Positions 1 to 13,901 are shown, counted from the first letter of the stretch. The stretch is 64,000 bases of DNA from a virus (IMGVR_UViG_3300042869_000676:11628-75627); one strand, 5' to 3'. Numbers and translations are program-made. Notes: generated from the letters alone by a model not told the origin.

Positions 1-1
1 T

Positions 2-388
2 GAAGCGGCACCTTCTGTCCGGCGCCCGGCAGTGGTGAGCTTCAATGCCGAAAAGTACATTATGGTAAAGGAAAGTGATTTGAATAAGCTAGTAGAAGAG
101 AAGACTAAAGAAGCTATTTTAAATTCATATAAAATAAAGCCAAACACGAATACTATTTCTGTTAATAATGAGAACACGAATGGTAATGTTGTAAATAATG
201 AGCCTACTGATATTGTTCCAGTTGGGAAAGTGCCAACCGTTGAGACCTTGGTGGTTAAACCACAGGAAACTTCGTCTATTGGCAGGTACTTGGCGACGGT
301 AGTGGTGGTGCTAGGGTTCATCTTAGGAGTGGGCTGGCTGTTCTGGAAGAACAAACTCGCCGCAGCTAAAGAAAAGAAAACCGAGTAA
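2..388 (+). CDS. hypothetical membrane-anchored protein, probably 5'-partial
   Basis: Frame is open from position 2. C-terminal hydrophobic helix (LATVVVVLGFILGVGWLFW) followed by a basic tail. Confidence 0.65.
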   Translation, partial: EAAPSVRRPAVVSFNAEKYIMVKESDLNKLVEEKTKEAILNSYKIKPNTNTISVNNENTNGNVVNNEPTDIVPVGKVPTVETLVVKPQETSSIGRYLATVVVVLGFILGVGWLFWKNKLAAAKEKKTE

Positions 389-390
389 AG

Positions 391-437
391 TGGCGCATTC
401 TTAGGGTTGTGGCGCATTGTTTCGGTTATGGCGCATT
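391..437 (+). repeat. three TGGCGCATT boxes at 19-bp period
   Basis: Copies start at 391, 410 and 429. Confidence 0.85.
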
Positions 438-441
438 TTTC

Positions 442-500
442 GTGGAACATCTTTGCGTTGTGGAACATTTTTGTGGAACATCTTTAGCTTCGTGGAACAT
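442..500 (+). promoter_or_regulatory. four GTGGAACAT boxes (parS half-site-like)
   Basis: Copies at 442, 460, 473 and 492, with the same spacing as the cluster at 6363-6421. Confidence 0.75.
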
Positions 501-532
501 TTGATTTTTTAATCTTTTTTTAAGAAAAGGTA

Positions 533-561
533 TTGACCAGAGGTTAAAAATCATTTTTAAT
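533..561 (+). promoter_or_regulatory. sigma70-type early promoter
   Basis: TTGACC-N17-TTTAAT. Shares GAAAAGGTATTGAC with the promoter at 1760. ATG follows at 570. Confidence 0.6.
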
Positions 562-569
562 TCTGGGGT

Positions 570-797
570 ATGAATGAAACACCAATTAAAAAAGGCAGAG
601 GTCGCCCCGCTGGTGGCACCTCTTTTGTAAACGTGTCTATCGCTGACTTGAAACGGTTCGGAGAAATTCCTGTTCCTGTTTCTCGCGTGTGGCTTGAAAA
701 AATGGGCTTGACGGTCGCAACAATCTCACCCATTGTTAGCGAAGTTAAACAAGAAATTGCTCCCGCTATTGAATTCAAATTGACCCAACTAAACTAA
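570..797 (+). CDS. small protein with an N-terminal AT-hook-like motif
   Basis: KKGRGRP motif. Stop overlaps the next start (TAATG). Confidence 0.75.
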   Translation: MNETPIKKGRGRPAGGTSFVNVSIADLKRFGEIPVPVSRVWLEKMGLTVATISPIVSEVKQEIAPAIEFKLTQLN

Positions 798-1735
798 TGA
801 AAGCTCGTTTCTCCAACCTAATCGGCCAAACTGATGTCAAGAAGAAGTTCGATTTCTATCTCGACTCTCAGAATCAATCACAACGTTTTCCTTTTGTTTT
901 GCTCACGGGCGCAAAGGGAATGGGCAAGACCGAGTTCGCCAAAGAAGCGGCTCGATCTATCGTTGGGAAAAGTGGCGAAGCTCGCCCATTTCTTGAGATC
1001 AACTGCGGCACAATCAAAAACGCGCAAATGTTCTTTGAGCAAGTGTTCGCACCTGTGATTCAAAACAATGAAGTTACTGTTCTGCTGGATGAGTGTCATG
1101 CTCTGCCCAAAGACTTAATGACTGTGCTTCTCTCTGCTTTTAACACTGAGAAAACTGAGCGCAAACAAATCTCTTGGAAGGACGGACTCTACGAGTTCAA
1201 TTTCAAGATGCAGAGTTTCATGTTGGCAACGACTGAACAAGATCGTTTGTTTGGCCCATTGAAAGATCGTTTGCTGTCGATTGATTTTCAAGCCTACTCT
1301 GTGGCGGAAACTGCTGAGATTATCAAACGCGCATTCCCTGACATTAGTTTTGAAGGTGATGTGCTTAGTCTCGTTGCCAAAACTGTTCGTGGAAATGCTC
1401 GCTCTGCTATCCAACGCGCAAAACAGATTGAGATGTATTGCCAGACGAAACACAAGAAAACGTTTGACGTTGCTGACTGGACTTCACTCTGCGACAAGAT
1501 CGGCATCAACTCATCTGGTCTTTCTAATTCTGAGATTCAAGTGTTGACAACTCTTAAACAGCGCGGCGACTGCTCGCTTTCAATGTTGAGCGCAGTCACA
1601 GGTATGTCTCGCTCTGCGCTTCAACGCGACGTGGAAATCTTCCTCTTGCAGCGCGGTTACATGAAGATCGAAGGTTCCAGAAAGATTACCGCAGAAGGTG
1701 TCAAGGCTTTGTCTGCTATCGAGGAGAAAAAATAA
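797..1735 (+). CDS. ruvB: RuvB-like AAA+ ATPase (Holliday junction branch-migration motor family)
   Basis: Walker A GAKGMGKT, Walker B LLDECH, ATT sensor-1, PLKDR arginine finger, RGNAR sensor-2, C-terminal winged helix. 312 aa. Confidence 0.85.
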   Translation: MKARFSNLIGQTDVKKKFDFYLDSQNQSQRFPFVLLTGAKGMGKTEFAKEAARSIVGKSGEARPFLEINCGTIKNAQMFFEQVFAPVIQNNEVTVLLDECHALPKDLMTVLLSAFNTEKTERKQISWKDGLYEFNFKMQSFMLATTEQDRLFGPLKDRLLSIDFQAYSVAETAEIIKRAFPDISFEGDVLSLVAKTVRGNARSAIQRAKQIEMYCQTKHKKTFDVADWTSLCDKIGINSSGLSNSEIQVLTTLKQRGDCSLSMLSAVTGMSRSALQRDVEIFLLQRGYMKIEGSRKITAEGVKALSAIEEKK

Positions 1736-1759
1736 AAAGAAAAAAGATAGGAAAAGGTA

Positions 1760-1787
1760 TTGACGAGTGCAGAAAAATCCTCACACT
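1760..1787 (+). promoter_or_regulatory. sigma70-type promoter for the ncRNA/tRNA operon
   Basis: TTGACG-N16-CACACT with an A-rich upstream tract. Confidence 0.55.
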
Positions 1788-1804
1788 CATTTTCGTTGAG
1801 GTCA

Positions 1805-2200
1805 TCTGACTCCCGCCCCCCACGCCTGACAATACTAGGTGGGGCGGGAAATCAGGTTGTTCTTTCTAATTTTGGTTGAGAAAAAGAGTATCGAGCGCGG
1901 CGAAGAGCCAAGCGACGCCTAATCGACCAAAATTTTGTAACGCTAAAAATCCCAAGCAAGAGTGCTTCTATGTGAAAACGGTAAAAGTCCGTCACGGGAG
2001 GTAAAGCCACGAATAGAGGCTTACTCGTTACAATCTAATTTTTGTGGTGAAGCAAAGTATGGAGCAGCCCTTCCTAGTGCTGGGTATTAGCGGTTGAAAA
2101 CTACCGCCGCCACATTAAAACTTTCCTCAATCCGCCGATCCACATTGGCTGGTGAGGAACCCTGGAAGTGGGTCGCGCATACTTTAATCACGCGAATAAT
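1805..2200 (+). ncRNA. cluster of about 5 structured non-coding RNA elements
   Basis: No ORF in the track. Successive closed stems at 1805-1856, 1868-1934, 1935-2033, 2043-2114 and 2123-2196, separated by short A/T-rich linkers. Confidence 0.6.
2043..2115 (+). ncRNA. tRNA-like element (non-canonical)
   Basis: 7-bp acceptor TGTGGTG/CGCCACA, 5-bp T-stem GCGGT/ACCGC, 73 nt. Atypical T-loop and anticodon loop. Confidence 0.55.
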
Positions 2201-2248
2201 TTTGCTAGCTAAACTAAACAATAACTGATTGCTTAACTAAATACTAAA

Positions 2249-2704
2249 ATGCCTAACTGGTGCCAAAACAACATCGCCATCTCTGGTGATTTAAATAAAT
2301 TTAAAACGTGGCTTAACGGTGAACCGTTCAGCCTGAATAAGATTGTGCCAATGGATCAAATCTTATTGGAAGATGAAGGCTGGCATAATTGGCGCATCGA
2401 GAATTGGGGAACTAAATGGGACGTGGACGTAGAGGCTGAAATCACTTTCAGCGGAGACAGTGCGATACTTATCCACTTCAACAGTGCGTGGGGACCGCCT
2501 AACTTAGCTATCGCTAAGCTCTCAGAATCTTTTCCAGAGATTACAATTGAACACTCTTATCTTGAAGAAGGTATGTGCTTTGTTGGCAAAGATGTCTATT
2601 CTAATGGCGCTCTTCGTAACGCAGTATGCTACGAAGACCCTAGCAAAGAAGAGTGGAAAGAACTTGCCACTGCTGAATTTAACTGGGAACCTTACGAGGA
2701 ATAA
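2249..2704 (+). CDS. DUF1281/YubB ferredoxin-like fold family protein
   Basis: MPNWC N-terminus, W..W...NWGTKW, F.SAWGPP and Y.EEG..F.G motifs. Confidence 0.8.
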   Translation: MPNWCQNNIAISGDLNKFKTWLNGEPFSLNKIVPMDQILLEDEGWHNWRIENWGTKWDVDVEAEITFSGDSAILIHFNSAWGPPNLAIAKLSESFPEITIEHSYLEEGMCFVGKDVYSNGALRNAVCYEDPSKEEWKELATAEFNWEPYEE

Positions 2705-2709
2705 AACTT

Positions 2710-2895
2710 ATGGCTAAAACTAAAACCAAAACAACTTATGCTTTCTCTGTTAATTTTTATAATTTGCTTGAAGCTGCTTCTCAGGAAGAAGCCGAAAAGC
2801 AGGTATTAGAAATTCTCCGCCAAGCTGTAGAAAAGAAAGACCTCTCAGACTTTGAGATTTACTCCCATAGCAAAGATTACTTTTTAATTCACTAA
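2710..2895 (+). CDS. hypothetical protein
   Basis: 61-aa ORF tightly packed in the operon. Confidence 0.65.
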   Translation: MAKTKTKTTYAFSVNFYNLLEAASQEEAEKQVLEILRQAVEKKDLSDFEIYSHSKDYFLIH

Positions 2896-2896
2896 A

Positions 2897-3067
2897 ATGC
2901 CCCTACCAGAAGAAGCAACTTCCACAATGAATACACTGCGATTCATTTACAGTAAGTATAAAGCTGAATTCGATAAAGCTCTCAAGTATGATGAGAAGAA
3001 AGATCGCAAGTATCAGAACGAAATGAGGAAATTGCAACGAGAAAAGCTTAAACAACAAATAGCTTAA
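2897..3067 (+). CDS. hypothetical basic protein (56 aa, not in the ORF track)
   Basis: ATG at 2897, TAA at 3065-3067; MPLPEEATSTMNTLRFIYSKYK...KQQIA. Fills the gap before the tRNAs. Confidence 0.6.
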   Translation: MPLPEEATSTMNTLRFIYSKYKAEFDKALKYDEKKDRKYQNEMRKLQREKLKQQIA

Positions 3068-3074
3068 TAGTTTA

Positions 3075-3149
3075 GTCCTTATCGTATAACGGATAATACA
3101 AGGCTCTTCTAAAGCCTCAATGAAAGTTCGATTCTTTCTGGGGACACCA
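3075..3149 (+). tRNA. tRNA-Arg(TCT)
   Basis: Acceptor GTCCTTA/TGGGGAC, anticodon arm AGGCT-CTTCTAA-AGCCT, GTTCGATTC T-loop, encoded CCA. Confidence 0.9.
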
Positions 3150-3151
3150 TC

Positions 3152-3224
3152 GGGCAGATAGCTTAGTGGTTAAAGCAAAGAACTCATAATTCTGTGATCG
3201 GGGGTTCAAGTCCCTCTCTGCCCA
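3152..3224 (+). tRNA. tRNA with CAT anticodon (Ile2 more likely than elongator Met)
   Basis: Acceptor GGGCAGA/TCTGCCC, loop CTCATAA, GTTCAAGTC. The G1-C72 pair excludes an initiator. No encoded CCA. Confidence 0.85.
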
Positions 3225-3238
3225 TTTCTTTAGAGACA

Positions 3239-3360
3239 AAAGGTGAACCACTTATCTCTTAATACTAAAAGACGAAAGCTGAACTAGATAATACTTAATA
3301 ACGAAAGGTGAACTACTTAATACGTAATAACGAAAGGTGAATGCGTTAATAAGTAATAAT
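3239..3360 (+). repeat. four degenerate 29-36 bp repeats with core AAAGGTGAA
   Basis: Cores at 3239, 3275 (AAAGCTGAA), 3304 and 3333. Two more at 6095 and 6130. Confidence 0.8.
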
Positions 3361-3366
3361 AAAAAC

Positions 3367-3466
3367 AGGGGTAGGTAGGGGTAGGTAGGGGTAGGTAGGG
3401 GTAGGTAGGGGTAGGTAGGGGTAGGTAGGGGTAGGTAGGGGTAGGTAGGGGTAGGTAGGGGTAGGT
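3367..3466 (+). repeat. (AGGGGTAGGT)10 tandem array
   Basis: Ten perfect 10-mers read directly. Confidence 0.95.
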
Positions 3467-3502
3467 GAATTGAGATTGGTTCTCAGTCTCAACGGTGGAG
3501 CA

Positions 3503-3532
3503 GAAAAAACCCGCCCTTTTCGGGGCGGGTCG
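3503..3532 (-). terminator. intrinsic terminator of the DUF932 gene
   Basis: ACCCGCCC-TTTTCG-GGGCGGGT stem with a T-run on the minus strand. Identical to 7497-7526. Confidence 0.85.
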
Positions 3533-3550
3533 CTTTGGCGATCTCTGCGA

Positions 3551-4348
3551 TTAGTTAGCGCCGATCTCGGCAGGCAAAACAACGTTGATTCCTGCGAATG
3601 GGTCGAGGACGCTGTGAAGGATCGAGGACCGAATCGGGAGAGCGTTCAAATTCCCCTTGTAGATTTCGGTGAAGGCATTGTGAAGGCTCCAGAGGTTGCG
3701 CGGTGCAAACTCTTCGTGCAAGGGCTTGTCCCACTGGTCGAGCACATCGGCGATCATATTTTTGCCGATTGCGCCAGACCGATAAGAGCGCAAGATGAGG
3801 TTTCCAGCGGTCTCGTCGTCGAGATTCGTGTTCGTGTATTTTTTGACGCGGGTCTCGTGGTTCGTCCACATCTCGCCAAGCTTACCAAGCGCTTCGCCCA
3901 TTTTCTTGGGTAGGTCGAGCATGATGTTGGTGGTGTGGCGGCGACCGATCACAATTTCGTTGTGGAAAACAAGATTGTCGCAGACGAAAGGTGCGTTGCC
4001 AGCGCAAATGCCAGCGCGAAAATCTTTGCAGTGCGAGTTACGCAAGCCGACAACGGTGCCAGAGGTAGCGCCGTCTTTTTTCATGTCGATCTGAAACAAG
4101 CCAAAGTAATTTTGACCATATTTTGCAAGGGTGTGGTGTTCTTTGATTACGCTCAGGCCTTTTTCTGCGAGCTGGTCGCGGAAAATTTCGACCATGCGAT
4201 TGTGGCTCACTGGCACGAAGCTGCGGGTAGTTTCGGGCAAGGGGACGTTGCCGATATCGGCAAATTCTACGGCGACGTTTCTGCCTCCTGCAACGTGCAG
4301 GTTCAACTCGCGCTTCTGATTAACTTGGGGGACATTTACAGTTTCCAT
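3551..4348 (-). CDS. DUF932 family protein
   Basis: PVSH, VGLRNSH, G...FVCDNL.F, RRHT and LWSLHNAFTE motifs. Confidence 0.75.
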   Translation of the reverse strand: METVNVPQVNQKRELNLHVAGGRNVAVEFADIGNVPLPETTRSFVPVSHNRMVEIFRDQLAEKGLSVIKEHHTLAKYGQNYFGLFQIDMKKDGATSGTVVGLRNSHCKDFRAGICAGNAPFVCDNLVFHNEIVIGRRHTTNIMLDLPKKMGEALGKLGEMWTNHETRVKKYTNTNLDDETAGNLILRSYRSGAIGKNMIADVLDQWDKPLHEEFAPRNLWSLHNAFTEIYKGNLNALPIRSSILHSVLDPFAGINVVLPAEIGAN

Positions 4349-4584
4349 TTTTTTGTGTGTTTTATTGGTTGCGACTAGGTGATCTAGTCGATGAGGAAAA
4401 ACTGAAGTATCTGTTTAGACCGTGCAAGCCTTTTTGACGAATTAGTTGAAAAGAATCTTTGGGTATTTTTGCGGAAGGTGTTGACAAGTGCTTTGATTTT
4501 TTGTTGGGAAAATTGCGCGGCGCGCTTATATCAGAAAATGGCGCAAAGTCAACCCGGTATTTTTCTTTTTAGAAATTATTTATT

Positions 4585-4613
4585 TTGACAACGGTGTTTT
4601 ATTCTGGTAAAAT
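4585..4613 (+). promoter_or_regulatory. near-consensus sigma70 promoter with no downstream ORF
   Basis: TTGACA-N17-TAAAAT with extended TG. Predicted start about 4619-4620, at the G-rich repeat. Confidence 0.7.
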
Positions 4614-4618
4614 AAAAC

Positions 4619-4670
4619 AGGGGTAGGAAAATTTTGATTAGGGGTAGGTAGGGGTAGGGGTAGGAAAATT
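4619..4670 (+). repeat. mixed AGGGGTAGG array
   Basis: Four GGGGTAGG cores with GGAAAATTT spacers. Confidence 0.9.
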
Positions 4671-4688
4671 TGTTCCACGTGGAACAAA
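4669..4688. promoter_or_regulatory. parS-type palindrome TTTGTTCCACGTGGAACAAA
   Basis: Perfect 20-bp palindrome. The 16-bp core TGTTCCACGTGGAACA matches the bacterial chromosomal parS consensus. Confidence 0.65.
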
Positions 4689-4712
4689 AAAAGCGAGGCA
4701 GTTACGCCTCGC
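4686..4712 (-). terminator. intrinsic terminator of the 5994-4742 gene block
   Basis: GCGAGGC-AGTTAC-GCCTCGC stem with a T-run on the minus strand. Confidence 0.75.
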
Positions 4713-4741
4713 AAATTTTGGATGAATTATTTATTTAAAGA

Positions 4742-4933
4742 TTAACTTTTTTGAATTGGAATGAATAGTTTAGTTACTCGTTGATTTCTAGGGTGGTTCA
4801 TATAATTTAAAGATATAGAATGTCCTTTGATTTTATCAATCTTCGCCTCCATACGAGTAAGGAGCCTTCGATCTTTTTCGTTTTGAGCGATCATGCAGAT
4901 GCTCATTGTATCTTCTTTAACGGATGTTTTCAT
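4742..4933 (-). CDS. hypothetical protein
   Basis: 63-aa ORF in a minus-strand operon. Confidence 0.6.
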   Translation of the reverse strand: MKTSVKEDTMSICMIAQNEKDRRLLTRMEAKIDKIKGHSISLNYMNHPRNQRVTKLFIPIQKS

Positions 4934-4940
4934 GTTTCGT

Positions 4941-5219
4941 TTAGTTTTTTTGTTTTATGTATTTCTCCATCTCGTCCCGAATTTCGTCGGGCATGAAGCA
5001 AGAAAAGTATTTTTCAGAACTAGATCCTTTCCAGTCCCAGATTGAGCAGTCGTGGTTTTGACCATCTAATTCCGCTGTGAAATACCAGACGGCGCAACAT
5101 TTTCCATCTATGCTCGCAGTAGGTTGAAAGCCGAGAGCATTTGAAATTTCGTCGATGGTGAAGCCAAAGATAGTTCCGGTTTTGTAATTGTTTCCGATTT
5201 CTGCGGGTGTGATTCTCAT
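4941..5219 (-). CDS. hypothetical protein
   Basis: 92 aa. ATGA overlap with the upstream gene. Confidence 0.7.
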   Translation of the reverse strand: MRITPAEIGNNYKTGTIFGFTIDEISNALGFQPTASIDGKCCAVWYFTAELDGQNHDCSIWDWKGSSSEKYFSCFMPDEIRDEMEKYIKQKN

Positions 5220-5653
5220 TTGTAAAAAATATGATTTTCGATTGTAACTGTTGCAAGCATTTTTTTATTCCAAGATGGATTTATTTTTGTCGTGTGATAA
5301 AACTGTGCGTTTTTCGTGTAATTAGTGGAGCCAAGATTTTGAGCAATTTTGAGAGCGTTTGACCATTTCTTGTGTTTCTTTGCTTTGTTGATCTCAGCTT
5401 CAACATCTTTGCCGTTCCAACAAGAGAACTGTTTGCGCTGCAAACAAACTTGCATTGGCGAAAGTTTGCGCGAGATTGAACGGTTGTAAATCACTTCGGC
5501 AACAGCAGACATTGCGCGAAAATCGCGCTCGCCGCCAGCCTCGGCAATCAAAGTTGCGGCGACAATCTCAGTTGCGCTGACTGTTACAACCGATTTGCTG
5601 TGCAATGAGTTCAGCCCAGAAAAAAACGCGAGGAGAAGGCAAAGGGATTTCAT
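5216..5653 (-). CDS. SleB/Hydrolase_2-family cell wall hydrolase with signal peptide
   Basis: EAGGE, AVAEVIYNR, QFSCWN, FYHT and IENHIFY motifs. Hydrophobic N-terminus. Confidence 0.85.
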   Translation of the reverse strand: MKSLCLLLAFFSGLNSLHSKSVVTVSATEIVAATLIAEAGGERDFRAMSAVAEVIYNRSISRKLSPMQVCLQRKQFSCWNGKDVEAEINKAKKHKKWSNALKIAQNLGSTNYTKNAQFYHTTKINPSWNKKMLATVTIENHIFYK

Positions 5654-5732
5654 TTTTGTTGAGGTGTTGAATGGTTTGGTAACGGGAAAAGTTGTTTGCG
5701 ATAAAGATTTCAGCGAGTTCGTATTCGTTCAT
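5568..5732 (-). CDS. possible 54-aa protein overlapping the hydrolase start
   Basis: ATG at 5732 after an A-rich leader; MNEYELAEIFIANNFSRY...QRN; TGA at 5568-5570. Confidence 0.4.
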   Translation of the reverse strand: MNEYELAEIFIANNFSRYQTIQHLNKNEIPLPSPRVFFWAELIAQQIGCNSQRN

Positions 5733-5740
5733 TTTTTTTG

Positions 5741-5762
5741 AGGGGTAGGGGTAGGAAAATTT
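5741..5762 (+). repeat. short AGGGGTAGGGGTAGGAAAATTT unit
   Basis: Same unit as the 6164 array, squeezed between two ORFs. Confidence 0.85.
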
Positions 5763-5994
5763 AACCAGACGAGTCAGCCCAGAAAGCTAATTTCTTAGAT
5801 GGCGAAATGTAAAGGGATTCGTGCATAGAAAGCCGAATTTCTTTCAAGTCGGTTACGTCGGACAAAACGGCGGGGCGAGTTTTCCAGCCGTTTGCTGCGC
5901 CAAGATTAGTATAGCCAAGTACGTCGTTGAAAAAATTAACTTCAATTTTTTCGCCGTTTAACAAGAGGGTTTTTTTTCCGTGAATGTTGGTCAT
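5761..5994 (-). CDS. hypothetical protein
   Basis: 77 aa, preceded by TTGCAA-N17-TAGTTT on the minus strand (6029-6001). Confidence 0.7.
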   Translation of the reverse strand: MTNIHGKKTLLLNGEKIEVNFFNDVLGYTNLGAANGWKTRPAVLSDVTDLKEIRLSMHESLYISPSKKLAFWADSSG

Positions 5995-6163
5995 GGCTAA
6001 AAACTATTTTTTTTTCGTGGTGGTTGCAAGTTTTTTTTTAGATTTATTTTTTATTTTTTGAGAAAAAAGCTTGACAAGAGTTTCGGCAAATAGTAAAGGT
6101 GAATGAGTTCTGTTCTAATAACAAACATGAAAGGTGAACGTGTTAATACCTAATAACAAATCT

Positions 6164-6327
6164 AGGGGTAGGAAAATTTTTAGGGGTAGGGGTAGGAAAA
6201 TTTTTAGGGGTAGGGGTAGGGGTAGGAAAATTTTTAGGGGTAGGGGTAGGAAAATTTTTAGGGGTAGGGGTAGGAAAATTTTTAGGGGTAGGGGTAGGGG
6301 TAGGAAATTTTTAGGGGTAGGGGTAGG
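6164..6327 (+). repeat. [(AGGGGT)1-3 AGG AAAATTTTT] compound array
   Basis: Seven G-blocks separated by six A3-4/T5 spacers. Confidence 0.95.
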
Positions 6328-6362
6328 CGTTTTGAGATTAGGTCTCAACTTCAATAAACGGC

Positions 6363-6421
6363 GTGGAACATTTCGGCACCGTGGAACATTTTCGTGGAAC
6401 ATTTCGCGCAGCGTGGAACAT
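6363..6421 (+). promoter_or_regulatory. four CGTGGAACATTT boxes (parS half-site-like)
   Basis: GTGGAACAT at 6363, 6381, 6394 and 6413. Confidence 0.75.
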
Positions 6422-6508
6422 TTTGGCGTGCCAACCTCGTTTTTTTAGCAAAGATTTTTTTTTATTTTTTAGTCGTTTTTTTTCGTTGGGTGTGGTTTAT
6501 TTCCTGCG

Positions 6509-7225
6509 ATGAAAAAAACACTTCCCTTGCTTGCTTTCGGCGCGGACGCGAAAACGTCAAAAGGCGCTTTGCTTAATTACTTGACGGGCATTTTATACTT
6601 GGCTCCGGCCAATGAAGGAGGATTTGGAAATCTTTGCGTGAATGCTTCGGCGGGTTGTCTCTTGTCCTGCCTTTTCACGGCGGGGCGGGGTCGGATGTCA
6701 AACGTTCGCCTCGGTCGAATTCGGAAGACACGTTTATTTTTTACGGATAAAAAAGCATTTTTTGAACAGTTAGAAAAGGACATCGCGCGCGGCATGAAAC
6801 GGGCGGCGAAATTGGGGCTAGGGTATTGCGTGCGGCTGAACGGGACGAGCGACGTTCCCTGGGAACGTTTGGGGATTTTCGAAAAATTTCCGTCCGTGCA
6901 ATTTTATGATTACACGAAAAGCGTTTCGCGTGCGCTCGCGCACGCTCGCGGGGAAATGCCGTCGAATTATTATTTGACGTTTTCGCGCTCTGAATCAAAC
7001 GAAACGGACGCGCTCGCAGTGTTGGCTGCGGGCGGCAACGTTGCGGCGGTGTTTTCCTCGCCGAATTACCCGCAAACGTGGAAAGGGTTTGAAGTGGTGG
7101 ACGGTGACAAGTCGGATCTGCGTTTTTTAGACAAGCGGGGCGGCGCTGTGGTTGCGTTGTATGCGAAGGGAAAAGCGAAAAAGGACGCAAGCGGCTTCGT
7201 CATTCAAACGGGGGGCGGCGCGTGA
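6509..7225 (+). CDS. phage gene product 88 (GP88)-like protein
   Basis: C..AS.GC...CL..AGRG, VRLNGTSD..W, FYDYTK, YYLTFSRSE and DGD..DLRFLD motifs. Confidence 0.75.
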   Translation: MKKTLPLLAFGADAKTSKGALLNYLTGILYLAPANEGGFGNLCVNASAGCLLSCLFTAGRGRMSNVRLGRIRKTRLFFTDKKAFFEQLEKDIARGMKRAAKLGLGYCVRLNGTSDVPWERLGIFEKFPSVQFYDYTKSVSRALAHARGEMPSNYYLTFSRSESNETDALAVLAAGGNVAAVFSSPNYPQTWKGFEVVDGDKSDLRFLDKRGGAVVALYAKGKAKKDASGFVIQTGGGA

Positions 7226-7290
7226 TTTCTTTTATCGTCTTTTTGGTGGTGCTCTGGTTTATGCTATCAAAGCAAAGGGCCAAGCGATAA
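7222..7290 (+). CDS. 22-aa membrane peptide MISFIVFLVVLWFMLSKQRAKR
   Basis: GTG start overlaps the gp88 stop (GTGA). Ends 3 nt before the terminator stem. Confidence 0.55.
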   Translation: MISFIVFLVVLWFMLSKQRAKR

Positions 7291-7293
7291 AAC

Positions 7294-7325
7294 GGGGCGG
7301 GCCTAGCGGCTCGCCTCTTTTTTTT
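7294..7325 (+). terminator. intrinsic terminator
   Basis: GGGGCGGGCC-TAGC-GGCTCGCCTC followed by T8. Confidence 0.85.
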
Positions 7326-7374
7326 GTGCGCGTGTGCGCGTGTGCGCGTGTGCGCGTGTGCGCGTGTGCGCGTG
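7325..7374. repeat. (TGTGCGCG)6 alternating purine-pyrimidine tract
   Basis: 50 bp of strict Y-R alternation. Confidence 0.95.
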
Positions 7375-7380
7375 ATGCGT

Positions 7381-7493
7381 AGGGGTAGGGGTAGGGGTAG
7401 GGGTAGGGGTAGGGGTAGGGGTAGGGGTAGGGGTAGGGGTAGGGGTAGGGGTAGGGGTAGGGGTAGGGGTAGGGGTAGGGGTAGGGGTAGGGG
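7381..7493 (+). repeat. (AGGGGT)18-AGGGG telomere-like array
   Basis: 19 GGGG tracts at 6-bp period. Confidence 0.95.
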
Positions 7494-7496
7494 CAC

Positions 7497-7526
7497 GAAA
7501 AAACCCGCCCTTTTCGGGGCGGGTCG
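7497..7526 (-). terminator. intrinsic terminator
   Basis: 30-bp exact copy of 3503-3532. Confidence 0.85.
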
Positions 7527-7550
7527 TTGGTTGCGTTGCGTTGCTTTGCG

Positions 7551-8081
7551 TTAGCTTACGCGGCGCACGCTCCGCACCGCAATCAAATTTTTTTCCCCTA
7601 GCGTATAACAAGCAAATTCCTTTTTCTCGGCAAATTCAGACGCGAGGCAAAGGGACTCGATCACGGCACGGGAGACGCTTTTCCCGTTGAGACGGAAAAC
7701 GGTTTTGCAAGCGCGGGGCGTGCCGTCGCTGTTGTTCACGGGGTAAAGGCGGAGATAGAAAGCTCCCTTGTGCTCTATCAAACGATTCTCCATGCCGTCA
7801 ACCCATTTGCCCCACGGTAAACCCTGATTCTCTGCGGGCGCGTCGCCATTGGCGCGGGCCTCGATGACCGATTGGCGGTTGTCGTGCTTTGCGCCGACTT
7901 GAACCGTTGAGCGGACTGATTTTGTGATGATGTCGGAAACTCCTTTGCGGGTTTTCATCGGGCGGCTCCATGAGACGCCAACAAATTGACCGGCGGGCAC
8001 GCTCAAAAGTGCGGCGGCGATTGGTGACAAGGTGGCGGTTGCGGTTGCGGTTGCGGTGGCGGTGGCGGTGGCTGTTTTCAT
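7551..8081 (-). CDS. hypothetical early protein with an N-terminal Thr-Ala repeat
   Basis: 176 aa. LPWG.W and IEHKG..YLRLYP motifs. A/C-rich leader and its own terminator. Confidence 0.75.
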   Translation of the reverse strand: MKTATATATATATATATLSPIAAALLSVPAGQFVGVSWSRPMKTRKGVSDIITKSVRSTVQVGAKHDNRQSVIEARANGDAPAENQGLPWGKWVDGMENRLIEHKGAFYLRLYPVNNSDGTPRACKTVFRLNGKSVSRAVIESLCLASEFAEKKEFACYTLGEKNLIAVRSVRRVS

Positions 8082-8189
8082 ATGTGTTTTTTTTGTGTTG
8101 TTGTTGGTAACGAAAAACAGCGTGCATTTTTATTTGCCGAATTCAAGAAAAAAATCGCACGAACTATTTTTTTATTTTTAGAAATTCGC

Positions 8190-8219
8190 TTGACACGTTT
8201 TTTGTTTTTTTGGTAGGAT
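8190..8219 (+). promoter_or_regulatory. sigma70-type promoter pointing into the palindrome array
   Basis: TTGACA-N18-TAGGAT with extended TG. Confidence 0.55.
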
Positions 8220-8227
8220 GCGAAAAA

Positions 8228-8402
8228 CACTATAGCGAATTCTATAGTGGCGCGAGGAAATGATATAGCGTTGTATCAAAAATGATATAGCACTATATCA
8301 AAAAGTATATAGCGCTATATACACCCCCCGCCCTTATATAAAAAAGTATATAGCGAATTGTATAGGGCGCGGGGGGGGATGGTAATTCCTCACTCTACCA
8401 TC
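8228..8402. repeat. phased TATAGC palindrome array with C/G-tract inverted repeat (candidate origin or packaging/terminus site)
   Basis: 18-bp palindromic units at 8261, 8283 and 8305 (22-bp period). Related units at 8228 and 8346. CCCCCCGCCC...GGGCGCGGGGGGGG. Confidence 0.75.
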
Positions 8403-8614
8403 AATTTAAACCATCTTAATTTAATTACCCCCAAGGCTATCTTTACTTATCTCACTTACATTTACTTGCTTTACTTACCCTTGATTAGCTTATATATCTT
8501 ACCTGTATATAAACATACCTAAAAGAAACACTATCCCCCCACCCTTTTCTGAGAAAATGAGAAAATATCTAAAAGAATAGGAACAAAAACTCACTTTCCG
8601 GGCGGGGGAGAATT

Positions 8615-9211
8615 TTACCTAGCCTTTGGCTTAATTCCTTCTTCTTCTAGCTGTTTATCATAGGCTAAAGAAACGAGCATAGCTTCTTCATGTGTTTCAA
8701 AATAACCTAAATGTTTGCCGCATCTTTTAACACGGTATTTTTTAGATCCATCTTTAAACGTTAATATGAATATTCCGTACTTATAATTTTTTAGTTTTTT
8801 ATTGTTATTATTTTGCTTCATAGTAACTTCATATAAATTAGATATAGAGTTATTTAAGGGATTTTTATCTCTATGATCTACAAGCATATTTATTTCAGGC
8901 CAACGCTTGTGATACATAGTATATAGCAAAGTATGAACATGGTGATTTTTTCTTTTAAACGAGGTCCTTTTGTATCCGTTCCATATACTAGTAATCTCTT
9001 TGCCTGAATTTCTGTTAGTTAATGTGCCTTTTTCAAAATCAGCGATAAATGACTCCGACAAATCTTCTGGAGTTGGTCTATTTTTGTATTCAAAATAAAG
9101 CTTTACAAACTCGTCTATATCCATATGCTGGCTTCTTTTATAACGAAAAATCGCATCTTTTTCTTGAAAAGACATAGATAGCTCTTCTGGCTGTTGATTT
9201 TCTTGATTCAT
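8615..9211 (-). CDS. HNH homing endonuclease with a C-terminal AP2-like domain
   Basis: VDHRDKNPLNN..SNL...T..QN and HLGYFET..EA motifs. Confidence 0.8.
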   Translation of the reverse strand: MNQENQQPEELSMSFQEKDAIFRYKRSQHMDIDEFVKLYFEYKNRPTPEDLSESFIADFEKGTLTNRNSGKEITSIWNGYKRTSFKRKNHHVHTLLYTMYHKRWPEINMLVDHRDKNPLNNSISNLYEVTMKQNNNNKKLKNYKYGIFILTFKDGSKKYRVKRCGKHLGYFETHEEAMLVSLAYDKQLEEEGIKPKAR

Positions 9212-9214
9212 AAA

Positions 9215-9919
9215 TTAACCTTCGTTGAAAAATTCTCCGTGTAATTTTCGACCTATTTCATCTCGCCAAGCTTTAAGTATTTGAATTGTAGCTTCAACAA
9301 ATTCTTTTTTAACAGTCATCGACTTGAAATATTTCTTCCCATTACAAGAAACACAAGCATCAACACGCACGCGATCATCAGAAATAGAACGCACAAAAAC
9401 ACCTTTTACCCCTGATTTGTTACTTTCGTACAATGATTTGTTACTGGCGTTTTGAGAATTAGTACTTTCTCTTAGATTGCAAGGTCTATTATCTGTTTTA
9501 TCTTCATTTATATGATCTACCTTATAGCCTTTTTTGGCCCAACGACCATTATGTAAACAAAAAATAATTTTATTAAGAAAAACCGTAAAATAATAACCCT
9601 CAAATTTTATACTGGCTACTATATATCCCTGACGTTTTAAAAAGCCAACTTTATCACCAGCCTTTTTATTACCACTGTTGTTTTTTAAAAACAAATTTCC
9701 ATCTTCGTCATGATAATACATCTTAGCTAATTGTTCTGGAGAAATAACATCTTCAATCCTTTTTTTTGGCCCCTTATACTCCCAAACATCCATTGCATAG
9801 TTGAAGTTTTCTATTCCGCCGATTCTTTTTACTAAGAGTCTAATTTCAGCAAGCATTTCTGCCGTCACAATTAACTCTTTTTTTTGATTTGTTTGTTTTG
9901 CTTTTTTAGTTAGCGCCAT
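9215..9919 (-). CDS. HNH homing endonuclease
   Basis: VDHINEDKTDNR..NLR..T.SQN..N and NKSGVKGV motifs. Confidence 0.85.
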   Translation of the reverse strand: MALTKKAKQTNQKKELIVTAEMLAEIRLLVKRIGGIENFNYAMDVWEYKGPKKRIEDVISPEQLAKMYYHDEDGNLFLKNNSGNKKAGDKVGFLKRQGYIVASIKFEGYYFTVFLNKIIFCLHNGRWAKKGYKVDHINEDKTDNRPCNLRESTNSQNASNKSLYESNKSGVKGVFVRSISDDRVRVDACVSCNGKKYFKSMTVKKEFVEATIQILKAWRDEIGRKLHGEFFNEG

Positions 9920-9928
9920 ATAAATACT

Positions 9929-10450
9929 TTACTTAACCTTTTCCGCTAAAAGCGCCAACAACTCATTAGAGATATCTTCTTTATCTACCGTATAATCAGG
10001 AAGAGTAGTAGAAGAGCCTGAATAATGGTCAAATTCGGAAACTTGAACGTAATTCAACGGCCCCAAATGCGCCAAATAGCGACATTTTTCTTCGTTATAG
10101 TCTTCTGGAAGGTTATCGAACAACCAAACAGCGCCCGGTTCAATTTGAGGAATTTTGCCAGTGCGCCCGCGAATATCCTCACGAGAGTATATATCTTCGG
10201 CCTCAAATCCAAAGGAAAAGGCTTTGTTCATGGCAAGAGCATAGTCTCTTGTAGCTACTGTGAGCATAAAAACCTTAGCCTTCTTACGAGCTTGCTCAAG
10301 AAACGCGACAGAACATTCTCTAACCTTCGTATTATAATGCTCTTTTGAGCTTAAAGTTATCTTTTGATAACCGGGCATAACTGATTTGGAGAATAATCCA
10401 TAAGTATGGATTAATGTTTCATCTAAGTCAACGAATATGTATTTGTTCAT
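9929..10450 (-). CDS. HAD-superfamily (FCP1/NIF-like) phosphatase
   Basis: FVDLDETLIH motif I, T.A.RDYA, and LFDN. Confidence 0.75.
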   Translation of the reverse strand: MNKYIFVDLDETLIHTYGLFSKSVMPGYQKITLSSKEHYNTKVRECSVAFLEQARKKAKVFMLTVATRDYALAMNKAFSFGFEAEDIYSREDIRGRTGKIPQIEPGAVWLFDNLPEDYNEEKCRYLAHLGPLNYVQVSEFDHYSGSSTTLPDYTVDKEDISNELLALLAEKVK

Positions 10451-10482
10451 GTTATGCCTTAATTAAAAATATTAAAAATAGC

Positions 10483-11019
10483 TCAATCAAAGTTGCTAAT
10501 TTGAATCCCAAGTACAAGGTCATCCCCAGTACTATCCTGTTTTTCAGTGTTTTCATTAAATTTTGGTATTTTGTGTAGGTATGGTTCTAAATCAAATCTT
10601 CCAGCGTGAAATTCGGCGTGGCAGTTCTTGCATAATGGGGCGCATTTCTGTAGTTCTTTTATAAGTTCTTCATCATCTAATTTTCTTCTACACTCTCCTA
10701 TCTCAAACTTTTTCTCTGACGGGACAATGTGATGAAAGTCTATTGCTTCCGGAACAGAATGTCCGCATCTGATACATGCGCCGCCTAAATGGTTAATATA
10801 ACTAATTTTTAAACATCTTGCTACATCTCTCCTCGTTTTTAAATTTCTATGTGGAGTTTTATCATGGCATTCTTTACAACTTCCCCTAAGACCAAATCGA
10901 CCTGCCTTATTCACATAGAAATCAGAGAAAAGCTTAAGCAATTTACAAGCACGACAAGTTTTATGTGTTACAGTTTGATGCGTCACTAAAGTATCAACTA
11001 TTGTATCAGTTTGCGTCAT
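10483..11019 (-). CDS. zinc-binding HNH endonuclease
   Basis: CxxC pairs, DFHH and LCKNCH..FH motifs. Confidence 0.75.
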   Translation of the reverse strand: MTQTDTIVDTLVTHQTVTHKTCRACKLLKLFSDFYVNKAGRFGLRGSCKECHDKTPHRNLKTRRDVARCLKISYINHLGGACIRCGHSVPEAIDFHHIVPSEKKFEIGECRRKLDDEELIKELQKCAPLCKNCHAEFHAGRFDLEPYLHKIPKFNENTEKQDSTGDDLVLGIQISNFD

Positions 11020-11212
11020 TCAAATCCTCTTCATAAGGTGGCTGAGAACCATTTTTAATATAAAAAAACAATTCTTTTAAGCCTTTAACAAAGTCACGCC
11101 CGGCTTCTTTAGAGTTAAAGGTCATTTGAATCAAGAATGTTAAGCCTCCCAGCACAATAAAGGCTGGGATAGCTAATAGCGCCCAAATTAATCTAAAAAC
11201 TAAGCTTTTCAT
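11006..11212 (-). CDS. small membrane protein
   Basis: Likely ATG at 11212 (MKSLVFRL...). One hydrophobic helix. Confidence 0.6.
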   Translation of the reverse strand: MKSLVFRLIWALLAIPAFIVLGGLTFLIQMTFNSKEAGRDFVKGLKELFFYIKNGSQPPYEEDLNDAN

Positions 11213-11213
11213 T

Positions 11214-11813
11214 TTAGGTCCAAAACTTTTCGCGGTTTTTAACCACAAAGTCGCACAAAACTGTGTCGCATTCGTTAAGGTGTTTGTCCATTTCAATGTA
11301 AGCTGTGAAATTATCATTCTCTAAACTCAAAGCGTGATTGTGAATATCGTCTAAAAGCTTTTGCCGTCCACCTTTAGCGTAATCGTAAGCTTCTTTAAGT
11401 TGTTTAACGAATTGAATTTCCTTTTCAGTCTCTGAACAAATATGTTCAAGATATTTTTCTCTTTCAACTAGCTCAACAACGCAAGCAAGATGAAACAAAA
11501 CAATAATTTCGACCATATCCATTTCTCCGCTCTTATCAAACACAGCGTTACGAAACTCTTTGCGTGGATGACGCAAGAAATTCTTGATTTTGCGCTTAAT
11601 AAATCGGTAATTGGAACCAACTGAATAATAGCAATCATCATAAGTTTCTCTTAGGAAACGCTGAACAGGATACTGAACGGACAAGTAAGCGTAATACTTG
11701 TCCCACTCTCTAAAACCTAGAGCGTATGGCGCAACGTACCACCCAGTAGGCCAAAACCATACTTTCTTTTCTGTTTTTTCTTTACCTTGTGAAATGTATT
11801 CTTCTGCTGTCAT
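11214..11813 (-). CDS. hypothetical protein
   Basis: 199-aa ORF in the operon. Confidence 0.75.
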   Translation of the reverse strand: MTAEEYISQGKEKTEKKVWFWPTGWYVAPYALGFREWDKYYAYLSVQYPVQRFLRETYDDCYYSVGSNYRFIKRKIKNFLRHPRKEFRNAVFDKSGEMDMVEIIVLFHLACVVELVEREKYLEHICSETEKEIQFVKQLKEAYDYAKGGRQKLLDDIHNHALSLENDNFTAYIEMDKHLNECDTVLCDFVVKNREKFWT

Positions 11814-11818
11814 ATTAT

Positions 11819-12454
11819 TTAGAGTTCGATTGTTCTAGCAGTGTTAATTGGTTTGTATTGTTCAGTGCAGATAGCTGCATTAACAAACATAGTGTTGTTT
11901 TTAACTTCAATGCCGTAGCCATTGTGGATATGGCCAAAAACATGAAGCTTAAGTTTAAGGTTTTCAGTGATTGTAGTGAATAAGTTGGCGCATCCAACGT
12001 GAACATTGCCCGGAGCTTTGTCAAGAATACTCATAGGTGGACCATGAGTAATCAAAACATCAGTATTTTTTGGAATCAAGTTCCAATGTTCTTGAATAGC
12101 CAATCCGCGTTTGCGATTAAACGCCCAATCAAAGAATTCTGGTTGAACTGGCGATCCCCAAAAGTTTAAACCTTCAATTGTGACGCCTTCATCTTGAAGA
12201 TAGTGAATGCCCGGCGGTATGATCGCGTTGATTTCAGAACGGCTTGCTTTTTCCATCCATTTATCATGATTACCAGCGATAACAAGCTTGTATTTGTGCG
12301 GCAAAGAGCCGAACCATGCGAAAAACTCGACGCAATCAAAGTAATCGCCGCCATTACAAAAGTCTCCAGAGTGGATAATCATATCTCCATCTGGAATCTT
12401 ACCTTTTAAATGACCGTGAAGTCCATGAGTGTCTGAAATACAAATAATTTTCAT
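11819..12454 (-). CDS. calcineurin-like metallophosphoesterase
   Basis: SDTH, HSGD, AGNHD, LITHGPP and FGHIH motifs. Confidence 0.92.
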   Translation of the reverse strand: MKIICISDTHGLHGHLKGKIPDGDMIIHSGDFCNGGDYFDCVEFFAWFGSLPHKYKLVIAGNHDKWMEKASRSEINAIIPPGIHYLQDEGVTIEGLNFWGSPVQPEFFDWAFNRKRGLAIQEHWNLIPKNTDVLITHGPPMSILDKAPGNVHVGCANLFTTITENLKLKLHVFGHIHNGYGIEVKNNTMFVNAAICTEQYKPINTARTIEL

Positions 12455-12687
12455 ACGAATTCAACCATTTCTTTGTCGCCATCTACGATATACTTTAAAA
12501 ATGTTTTATATTCTTCGCTAACGGTAGATTCAATACCGATTACATAAGCAGTCATTAAAATATCGGACAAGAGCTTCTCTTGCGTTTCCGTAGAGTAAGC
12601 TTTTAGCGCGTTAATGTGGCCTTCAAACTTTTTTGGAAGCTTTAACTTTGCTGGTTTTTTGTTTTTTAGATTTTTCTTTGGTTTCAT
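12451..12687 (-). CDS. hypothetical protein
   Basis: 78 aa, ATGA coupling to the next gene. Confidence 0.65.
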   Translation of the reverse strand: MKPKKNLKNKKPAKLKLPKKFEGHINALKAYSTETQEKLLSDILMTAYVIGIESTVSEEYKTFLKYIVDGDKEMVEFV

Positions 12688-12910
12688 TAGTTTCTACTCC
12701 ATAATAATCACAAACTATGCGAAGAGCACCCGCGAGAGTGAGGTTGTATTCCAAATCCTCTGTTTCCCAACTTTCTAATTTCTTTTTAGACTGCAAAATT
12801 TTAACATTTTGCATTGTATTCTCATAATGCCATTTGAGGCTAGTTGATGTGAGACTATCGGCCAAATCTGCGCTAAAGAGAGGAATCTCTGAGAGAGTTT
12901 TTGAGTTCAT
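12623..12910 (-). CDS. hypothetical protein
   Basis: Likely ATG at 12910 (MNSKTLSEI...). Confidence 0.65.
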   Translation of the reverse strand: MNSKTLSEIPLFSADLADSLTSTSLKWHYENTMQNVKILQSKKKLESWETEDLEYNLTLAGALRIVCDYYGVETNETKEKSKKQKTSKVKASKKV

Positions 12911-13091
12911 AATTTTTAGAGTGGTCGGTTTTAAACCAAATGTCAAGACTTTGTGATAAGAAATCGTAAAATTCATCATCTTCTCGCACAGAATTAAAAC
13001 GAATGTCTCGATTTGCGAGTTCTTGATACACCGCAGCAGTCATTGCAACGATGTCTCCTTTGTAGATTTCTTTGTTAGTTGTTAAGGTCAT
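12873..13091 (-). CDS. hypothetical protein
   Basis: 72 aa, ATGA coupling to the upstream gene. Confidence 0.6.
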   Translation of the reverse strand: MTLTTNKEIYKGDIVAMTAAVYQELANRDIRFNSVREDDEFYDFLSQSLDIWFKTDHSKNYELKNSLRDSSL

Positions 13092-13648
13092 GCGATTTTG
13101 TGAAAAAAGTTAGCGATTGCTGTAAAAAACTTATATTTGTAGCGAGAGAAATTGCGGTAAGTGAGAGTATAAAAAATATACTTATTGTACCAAAGATTAT
13201 GGTTTTTAGCGATCTGCTCTTTCCATCTCTTCTCATTTTCTAGTCTCTCTTTGTTTGATTCTTTAGTGAATTTCGCCAAAACAATGCTATCGCAAACGCC
13301 GTGAGTGAAAGTAGCTTCGTAATCTACGGAGCAGTCCCAAAGATCAAGAACGTCTCGGTAATAAGTGTAGAAAACGATCTTGCCGTGATGGTTAACTTGT
13401 TCAAGATACTCTCCGCTTCTTTCCATATGGCCGAAATCCCAAGGGCCAGATGGCTTTTCTGGCTCGACAAATTTATTCACTTCGTATTTTCGTACAAAGA
13501 GTTTTTTGCCTTGGATAATATAAGTTTCTAAGCAATTGATCAAATCTTTAGTTTGAAAATCGCCGTTATTAGAGTTTAGGCCAAGGCAAATCATTTCCTC
13601 TGAGTAAGGAAGAGTGTCGCTAACGATAATTGTGTCGAACATTCCCAT
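13088..13648 (-). CDS. conserved phage hypothetical protein (MGMFD...FQTKDL type)
   Basis: MGMFDTI, FQTKDL and Y.A.F..G motifs. Confidence 0.75.
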   Translation of the reverse strand: MGMFDTIIVSDTLPYSEEMICLGLNSNNGDFQTKDLINCLETYIIQGKKLFVRKYEVNKFVEPEKPSGPWDFGHMERSGEYLEQVNHHGKIVFYTYYRDVLDLWDCSVDYEATFTHGVCDSIVLAKFTKESNKERLENEKRWKEQIAKNHNLWYNKYIFYTLTYRNFSRYKYKFFTAIANFFHKIA

Positions 13649-13652
13649 AAAA

Positions 13653-13901
13653 TTATTTATTTGGTTTTAAAGTTTTGGAAACGAGGTATCCGTCTCCTGA
13701 TGGAGTGAAATCAACACTATCTCCTTCATTAAGTCCAGCCTTTTTGAGCATTTTTTTTGGAATTACAATGAAGTAGCCGTCTTTGTCTTGAAGAACAGGC
13801 ACTTGCACCTTATTTTTCTTTTTAAAAATATCATCAATTCTGTTTGCGAATTCGTCAGAAGAGATAGAAGATGGGCGACGTTTTGATCCTTTTCCGTTCA
13901 T
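13653..13901 (-). CDS. AbrB/MazE-like swapped-hairpin DNA-binding protein
   Basis: IVIPKKMLKKAGLNEGDSVDF pattern. Confidence 0.65.
   Translation of the reverse strand: MNGKGSKRRPSSISSDEFANRIDDIFKKKNKVQVPVLQDKDGYFIVIPKKMLKKAGLNEGDSVDFTPSGDGYLVSKTLKPNK

Follow-up and report, generated by a model that had tools for sequence, protein, structure and literature searches.

Why should a virus carry, within 4.1 kb, five tandem arrays that share a G-rich octamer (GGGGTAGG) and keep their G to one strand regardless of how the genes beside them are read? The question is raised by an uncultured phage in IMG/VR (contig IMGVR_UViG_3300042869_000676; 75,627 bp, estimated to be 52% complete), of which bases 11628–75627 make up the 64,000-nucleotide stretch analysed here, hereafter the ‘window’; the arrays occupy window positions 3367–7493. 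An earlier reading, made without database searches (the ‘sequence-only reading’), had described them as ‘telomere-like’ and set several explanations side by side: polar loading sites for a DNA translocase, origins primed by G-quadruplexes or R-loops, barriers to a nuclease or to DNA injection, and recombination joints for cassette exchange. Our answer, held with moderate confidence, is that the arrays are young, hypervariable G-rich mini- or microsatellites, lodged in the GC-rich slot of a repeated and co-oriented boundary module—a slot that more distant relatives fill with (CCCGG)3—within a hyperplastic cassette region, and that they mark recombination joints. No sequence-specific function of the octamer is required.

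Make-up, orientation and descent of the arrays

All five arrays were recovered exactly where the sequence-only reading had put them (Table 1), with copy numbers that are those of a contig assembled from short metagenomic reads. They measure between 22 and 164 bp, are built of units of 6–10 bp, and set off small, self-contained gene units (cassettes), one array to each boundary; array 1 is placed between a block of tRNA genes and 29-bp repeats and the terminator of a minus-strand DUF932-like gene, and array 4 between the divergent genes 5761–5994(−) and 6509–7225(+). Intrinsic terminators predicted from sequence on the minus strand (3531–3508, 4712–4693 and 7525–7502) end 9–42 bp before arrays 1, 2 and 5, bearing out the earlier remark that three of the arrays lie just past such terminators. 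The label ‘telomere-like’ is apt for the style of the sequence but not for its location, each array having genes to its left and right at a depth of 15–19 kb into the contig.

Co-orientation is as strict as had been proposed: 49 of 49 copies of GGGGTAGG lie on the plus strand, next to genes of either orientation, and all fall inside 3367–7493 (0.53 expected from shuffles), with no copy in the remaining ~71 kb when both strands of the whole contig are searched. The related octamer GGGNAGGG, which corresponds to the FtsK-orienting polar sequence (KOPS) of E. coli, occurs in 28 exact copies, again all on the plus strand; these are found in arrays 2–5 and not in the 10-mer array 1, as the sequence-only reading had also noted.

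Such one-sidedness invites the idea that a host DNA motor or nuclease reads the arrays as a polar signal, be it a KOPS-like loading site for FtsK, a Chi-like attenuator of RecBCD/AddAB that protects one side, or a stop to injection. Chi and KOPS are themselves G-rich polar octamers whose recognition would become more probable with tandem copies, and none of the region's three repeat families departs from a single orientation, irrespective of gene direction. Both signals, however, work dispersed across a genome and with a skew, whereas here the motif has no copy outside 4.1 kb of the contig and is missing from the 10-mer array; the arrays are, in addition, absent from relatives of ~80% identity that presumably face similar hosts. 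We regard a polar signal as very unlikely and, because the motif is purely local, a KOPS-like role in translocase loading as not supported; the tempting reading of the arrays as borrowed chromosome-polarity signals is thereby removed.

Five arrays would agree in orientation by chance once in 16 cases, which makes orientation by itself weak evidence; having flanks in common, the arrays are, moreover, not independent. Arrays 1 and 4 share the 29-bp repeats on their left (repeat family D4) and an inverted repeat on their right (D6); the same 30-nt terminator module (D12), without a single difference, comes after both array 1 and array 5; and the unit TTTTTAGGGGTAGGGGTAGGAAAATTT (D3) recurs in arrays 2, 3 and 4, internal units of array 4 matching array 3, taken together with its T-run, at 96% identity. 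As no array lacks a flank or spacer in common with another, the five are related by descent, as copies, and did not arise separately. On shared descent, co-orientation becomes the default outcome and no polar function is needed.

Could the arrays instead matter as non-B DNA, with plus-strand G-quadruplexes or R-loops acting as polar blocks or insulators of plus-strand (antisense) transcription, as sites of replication pausing or priming, or as stimulators of recombination? Folding predicts strong quadruplexes in arrays 1, 4 and 5, confined to the G strand (−44, −78 and −158 kcal/mol, against 0 to −15 kcal/mol for the same folding without quadruplexes; these energies use RNA parameters and are not evidence for folding in duplex DNA), and none is predicted for arrays 2 and 3. 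By the canonical G3+N1–7 rule (at least four G3+ tracts, loops of 1–7 nt), arrays 1 and 5 pass and arrays 2 and 3 fail; array 4 passes with long loops only, though folding with quadruplexes allowed still predicts them. Array 5 is further adjoined by a (TGTGCGCG)n microsatellite, an alternating purine–pyrimidine tract of the kind that is Z-DNA-prone by sequence, and a putative sigma-70-like promoter aims into array 2. Set against this, the (CCCGG)3 element that holds the slot in relatives has no strand asymmetry, and arrays 1, 4 and 5, lying between terminators or divergent genes, are probably little transcribed. The quadruplex and R-loop potential put forward earlier thus stands for three arrays and falls for two; it is therefore not what unites the five, and a non-B role seems to us quite unlikely.

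Near-identical strains and probable recombination joints

Three other, independent metagenome assemblies, from different samples, provide strains for comparison: L214/L287 (96% identity in the 176-aa protein encoded at 7551–8081), and L267 and L268 (95–96% identity in the hydrolase, ~93% in DNA). The arrays recur there at the same junctions and in the same polarity, and contain 12, 6 and 24 copies of GGGGTAGG, respectively, none of them reversed; the change of polarity elsewhere, for which the sequence-only reading had suggested looking, was thus seen neither in these strains nor in the rest of the contig.

The contigs of these strains break inside arrays 1, 4 or 5—that of L268 starts inside array 1, and array 5 is the end point of both the L214 and L268 contigs—as one would expect of real repeats, which defeat short-read assembly. 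The arrays also explain the fragmented metagenome assemblies of this phage. Such breaks, in contigs built from short metagenomic reads, are also what might speak for an assembly artefact, which the sequence-only reading had named as its own refutation, or for accidental co-orientation. Four separately assembled contigs nevertheless agree on the arrays, their junctions, their orientation and the unique flanks on both sides, and 89–99% of the sampled words of window 3000–8200 are present in at least 24 lake-water metagenome runs; we give an artefact next to no credence. The same runs are the reason for describing this as a persistent freshwater phage.

Within these fixed junctions the arrays themselves differ. 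Array 4 measures 164 bp in the window and ~88 bp, otherwise arranged, in L268 (it is partly seen in L267); array 2 is identical in L268; and array 3 is missing in L267 and L268, its place being taken by a ~350-bp cassette with two copies of a conserved box, GTGGAACA, and a small minus-strand open reading frame (identified by eye). The (TGTGCGCG)n tract has 6.8 copies in the window against 9.8 imperfect copies in L268. Purity reaches 100% in arrays 1 and 5 even though flanks differ by 4–13% between strains, which argues that arrays turn over faster than point mutations accumulate. The arrays are hypervariable, and array 3 is dispensable. The (CGTTG)n and coding (GGTGGC)n tracts share one 0.8-kb stretch with the microsatellites of the array region, all of them GT-rich on the plus strand, and this co-location fits a local repeat-prone mutational regime. 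As a separate observation, the coding tract, (GGTGGC)x7 at 8031–8072, lies inside the gene 7551–8081(−), encodes an N-terminal (Ala-Thr)n tract, and has 9.3 copies in L214.

Of the explanations listed by the sequence-only reading, recombination joints for cassette exchange has fared best. Besides the location of the arrays at boundaries, cassette presence/absence and replacement between strains map to array 3. Cassette order also changes: the hydrolase set comes before the DUF932 gene in L269, L270 and L273 and after it in the window, L279 and L277, a reordering that leaves both the modules and the gene orientations as they were. At array 2 there is a step in divergence between the window and L268, with 0 of 322 non-coding positions differing up to the end of the array and 5 of 71 beyond it (p=1.7e-4); the differences start 6 bp past the array, and the next gene is 18% divergent. 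Across the segments between arrays, divergence from L268 ranges from 3.0% to 13.7% (chi-square 93.6, p=2e-19). That the arrays mark recombination joints is, as part of the reading we favour, moderately probable on these comparisons; they may either drive the exchange or simply be carried along by it. We also observe that 450 bp of intergenic DNA (window 3423–3550 plus 4349–4670) is identical in L268, and that the DUF932 gene between these stretches differs at 35 of 798 positions (p=2e-7); the identity could be due to recent exchange of boundary segments or to strong constraint.

The module slot in more distant relatives and its setting

Outside the close sublineage, GGGGTAGG, and even GGGTAGG, is found in none of 16 related loci, whose hydrolase identity is 76–82% (L269–L283) or 97% (L284), and this marks the arrays as young. 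Nine of these array-free loci were mapped, eight by a boundary-element map, with tandem-repeat rows of (CCCGG)3 in addition for L278, L281 and L282. Their boundaries carry a conserved 15-bp (CCCGG)3, in the form CCGGGCCCGGCCCGG or CCCGGCCCGGCCCGG, that is length-stable across the relatives and adjoins 29-bp AAAG[G/C]TGAA repeats, an inverted repeat (TGAGATTGAGTCTCA) and GTGGAACA boxes. The last of these form clusters of 2–12 at every cassette boundary of the relatives, all on the plus strand in the orientation of the window; their strand is independent of the direction of neighbouring genes, and they lie 70–160 bp upstream of genes on either strand. A further cluster occurs at window 442–500. 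The GTGGAACA boxes are thus the conserved element of the boundary module, and the G-rich arrays fill the slot held elsewhere by (CCCGG)3. Both types of slot are present in L267, and L268, with G-arrays, and L276, with (CCCGG)3, derive from one metagenome (Ga0208232).

The two opposed boxes that abut array 2 form a perfect 16-bp palindrome (TGTTCCACGTGGAACA), which we take to be parS-like. It is not conserved in perfect form, since L268 has one mismatch (GTTCTACGTGGAAC) and the distant relatives have only direct GTGGAACA boxes.

What might have favoured the exchange of one slot element for another? The whole contig has no (CCCGG)3 and no CCCGGG or GGGCCC site, and, of all 4-bp palindromes, the two that fall furthest short of expectation in it are CCGG and GGCC (observed/expected 0.47 and 0.48), L268 being similarly depleted. 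The contrast in CCGG and GGCC with the relatives is not clean, as (CCCGG)3 itself inflates their counts. Restriction avoidance may have driven the replacement.

Two proposals would give the slot a function. According to one, the arrays are binding sites—of operator, iteron or centromere-like type—for a DNA-binding protein private to the sublineage, replacing (CCCGG)3 as the module's recognition element. The same octamer recurs at all five boundaries, as quadruplex potential does not; array 1 holds its ten copies at a helical, 10-bp period; and the slot has a conserved position and, as (CCCGG)3, a stable length. There are also candidate partners, genes 5761–5994 and 7551–8081, which co-occur with the arrays and were undetected in the (CCCGG)3-type loci compared. 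The second of these encodes a protein modelled as an Sm/SH3-like barrel (predicted local distance difference test score, pLDDT, 83.5), whose best structural matches are to WYL domains that bind single-stranded DNA (Z 6.0–6.6). These matches, however, to WYL/Sm-like barrels by VIA-align at Z of at most 6.6, lie within the noise for so common a fold; the protein has no Pfam family and no match in the PDB by sequence or by Foldseek, its 55 homologues (with an invariant NQGLPWGxW-type motif) are all hypothetical, and no G-rich array lies close to those on 19 other phage contigs. Nor was any ParA/ParB/ParR/Rep-type gene found among the 34 proteins scanned (Pfam and/or PHROGs; half of the genome is absent and small open reading frames are unannotated). 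Perfect head-to-tail hexamers with large differences in copy number between near-identical strains are atypical of iterons and centromeres, as is absence from 16 of 16 related loci; array 3 is dispensable, and L267 mixes both slot types. We consider binding sites unlikely.

The other proposal, which we would rank as similarly doubtful, has the slot as a functional DNA signal in which strand-polar G-arrays that are not palindromic took over from a palindromic (CCCGG)3 exposed to restriction. The arrays would then actively promote the exchange of cassettes or shield the DNA, whether by acting as recombination hot spots (similar to Chi, or GT-rich tracts of the kind preferred by RecA) or by serving as sites for a phage protein. 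Were this true, the phage would encode a programmable ‘joint’ for gene shuffling.

On the explanation that we favour, young satellites in a module slot, a seed of the form GGGGTAGG(AAAATTT) would have displaced (CCCGG)3 from its slot in a single sublineage; homologous recombination or gene conversion would have carried the seed from module to module, and replication slippage would have lengthened it into arrays. Boundary modules would recombine among themselves as well as with those of co-infecting genomes. The arrays would owe their co-orientation to the module, and would retain it because the genome stays colinear only if exchange takes place between direct repeats. The arrays would thus mark, and may add homology for, a cassette shuffling resembling that at promoter-early stem-loops (PeSLs) of other phages. 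Several points weigh against this account. One octamer at all five boundaries could equally reflect a sequence-specific binding protein; the stable length of (CCCGG)3 suggests that the slot, and hence its replacement, may be functional; and the perfect purity of arrays could come from selection rather than turnover by slippage. No seed copy of GGGGTAGG was found among the relatives, which leaves the origin of the octamer unexplained. As to the joints, non-coding divergence does not change significantly across array 4 when that array is taken by itself (p=0.17), and the heterogeneity between segments may partly reflect gene-specific constraint.

Two further roles were set aside. A Rho-utilisation function, resting on C-rich, G-free minus-strand RNA after terminators, does not suit array 4, which follows no minus-strand gene, or (CCCGG)3, which has no bias of C over G. 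A promoter role is at odds with the distances of 170–345 bp between arrays and the gene starts at 4348(−), 5994(−) and 6509(+), and with array 3, which directly abuts a start codon.

No comparable arrays were found among 80 GP88-bearing and 8 DUF932-bearing loci (41–61% identity). In IMG/VR, (GGGGTA)3+ is present in more than 117 contigs, and none of those compared shares flanks with this phage; a search with GGGGTAGGAAAATTT gave 51 single matches, apparently by chance, and one with the 10-mer array pattern a single contig whose surrounding sequence bears no resemblance to this phage. Beside these, three unrelated phages with homologues of 7551–8081 (L294, L296 and L306) contain many intergenic 10-mer arrays of TACATTACAA or ATTACAATAC around accessory genes, and multiple short tandem arrays between cassettes may be common in accessory regions.

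The putative promoter before array 2 has a counterpart, a second plus-strand sigma-70-like match (TTGACA-18-TAGGAT, within 8169–8219) pointing towards 22-bp ATATAGCG repeats at 8258–8320; an 18-nt upstream sequence (D20) is common to the two (4560–4613; 8169–8219). Such promoters might drive small repeat-derived transcripts; alternatively, the matches may be due to chance, the host probably using other promoters. Apart from the two tRNAs, an Rfam scan of window 1–14000 (E≤1) gave nothing above threshold.

As regards the host, a Shine–Dalgarno sequence is found at 0 of 42 gene starts (window 1–64000), with A/T-rich upstream regions, and this lack suggests a Bacteroidota-type host; TerL, searched against bacterial genomes, found no relative and so gave no host call. 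Cultured phages offered no match to window 1–12000 (megablast) or to a 663-aa protein (tblastn). Several large structural genes contain long collagen-like Gly-X-Y coding repeats.

Table 1. Arrays, module elements, genes and other features, in window coordinates unless another locus is named
Feature	Position	Strand	Remarks
Array 1, (AGGGGTAGGT)x10	3367–3466	+	100% pure; 10-bp period
Array 2, compound	4619–4670	+	four GGGGTAGG copies, AAAATTT spacers
Array 3, single unit GGGGTAGGGGTAGGAAAATTT	5741–5762	+	two hexamers + AAAATTT
Array 4, GGGGTA runs (2–3 copies) alternating with AAAATTTTT	6164–6327	+	higher-order period 24/54/78
Array 5, (GGGGTA)x19	7381–7493	+	100% pure; between two convergent terminators
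(TGTGCGCG)x6.8, alternating purine–pyrimidine microsatellite	7325–7379	+	abuts array 5
Four 29–32-bp AAAG[G/C]TGAA...TAATAA repeats	3238–3363	+	left flank of array 1; kept in all relatives
Two copies of the 29–32-bp AAAG[G/C]TGAA repeat	6094–6160	+	left flank of array 4; family D4
Inverted repeat TTGAGATTGGTTCTCAGTCTCAA	3470–3492		right flank of array 1; homologous to right flank of array 4 and to TGAGATTGAGTCTCA of relatives
Inverted repeat TTGAGATTAGGTCTCAA	6332–6348		right flank of array 4; family D6
30-nt terminator module	3503–3532	−	identical to 7497–7526; family D12
30-nt terminator module, second copy	7497–7526	−	4 bp after array 5; family D12
Terminator of gene 4742–4933	4693–4712	−	23 bp before array 2 in transcription direction
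Quartet of GTGGAACA boxes	6363–6420	+	follows array 4; family D7
Palindrome TGTTCCACGTGGAACA	4671–4686		perfect, 16 bp, two opposed boxes; abuts array 2
Putative sigma-70-like promoter, TTGACA-17-TAAAAT	4585–4613	+	11/12 matches; points into array 2
(CCCGG)3, example in L269	6624–6638 of L269		reverse complement
(CCCGG)3, example in L279	7197–7211 of L279		reverse complement
tRNA-Arg + tRNA-Met	3075–3224	+	then array 1
DUF932-like gene	3551–4348	−	then array 2
Four-gene set including cell-wall hydrolase	4742–5732	−	then array 3
Gene with terminator at 4693–4712	4742–4933	−	part of hydrolase-set stretch
77-aa gene	5761–5994	−	then array 4
GP88-family gene	6509–7225	+	then array 5
176-aa gene	7551–8081	−	then HNH endonucleases
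Phage sigma-factor-like gene	16430–17269		
TerL	19182–21110		structural module, further right of array region
Collagen-like coding repeats, 9-bp period	31289–31869, 34791–35589, 36180–37265, 39670–40073, 42358–42575, 63035–63966		

Comparison with known systems

The stoperators of Cluster A mycobacteriophages are asymmetric, 13-bp intergenic repressor sites that occur singly and dispersed, oriented relative to transcription. They resemble the present case in being an asymmetric intergenic motif repeated with non-random orientation, and differ from it in that here the motif forms tandem arrays whose orientation is absolute, independent of gene direction. In parC of plasmid R1 and in type Ib par loci, short direct repeats bound by ribbon-helix-helix proteins serve as centromere and operator; non-coding tandem direct repeats, and a 10-bp period in array 1, are common to both, whereas in our phage no partner partition or regulator gene was found and the repeats are perfect, hypervariable and not conserved in relatives. 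With KOPS and Chi the arrays share a G-rich polar octamer, GGGNAGGG being exact in the hexamer arrays, but here the motif is confined to 4.1 kb, without genome-wide skew, and is absent from the 10-mer array and from relatives.

Nearer in behaviour are the ‘core’ sequences of eukaryotic minisatellites (variable number tandem repeats, VNTRs), which are hypervariable and have one G-rich strand. Both have strand-asymmetric short G-rich units, homogenised arrays, a copy number that varies between near-identical genomes, and an association, here a probable one, with recombination joints; ours, by contrast, belong to a prokaryotic virus and have units of 6–10 bp in arrays of 22–164 bp.

The closest analogue, we suggest, is the modular shuffling mediated by PeSLs, cassettes of which are exchanged in the hyperplastic regions of T4-type phages (Arbiol et al. 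2010, PMC2839356; Comeau et al. 2014, PMC4122927). Here, too, short repeated intergenic modules with predicted terminators and promoter-like sequences flank small, presumably non-essential genes, and the insertions, deletions, replacements and reorderings that distinguish close relatives end at these modules. The elements of PeSL type seen here are the duplicated 30-nt terminator, the duplicated promoter-upstream sequence and the repeated 29-bp, inverted-repeat and box elements, in a composition unlike that of a PeSL: the module has several parts (29-bp repeats, GC-rich slot, inverted repeat and GTGGAACA boxes), never turns round, not even beside opposite-strand genes, and has, in this sublineage, a hypervariable G-rich tandem array in its slot, its promoters and terminators being predicted from sequence. 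The phage itself is unrelated to T4 and without a match in the cultured-phage collection.

The locus gives a concrete view of how an abundant, uncultured lake phage puts together and reshuffles its accessory genes, whose cassettes are joined by an always co-oriented, multi-part module. One slot of this module can be replaced wholesale, after which it evolves hypervariably, as a repeat. Should the arrays prove to promote exchange, they would offer a simple, sequence-defined handle on gene shuffling in phages; if they are neutral, they would serve as sensitive VNTR strain markers with which to follow the phage through lake time series. What appears to be new, set beside the PeSL systems, is a PeSL-like modular boundary that carries a hypervariable G-rich array.

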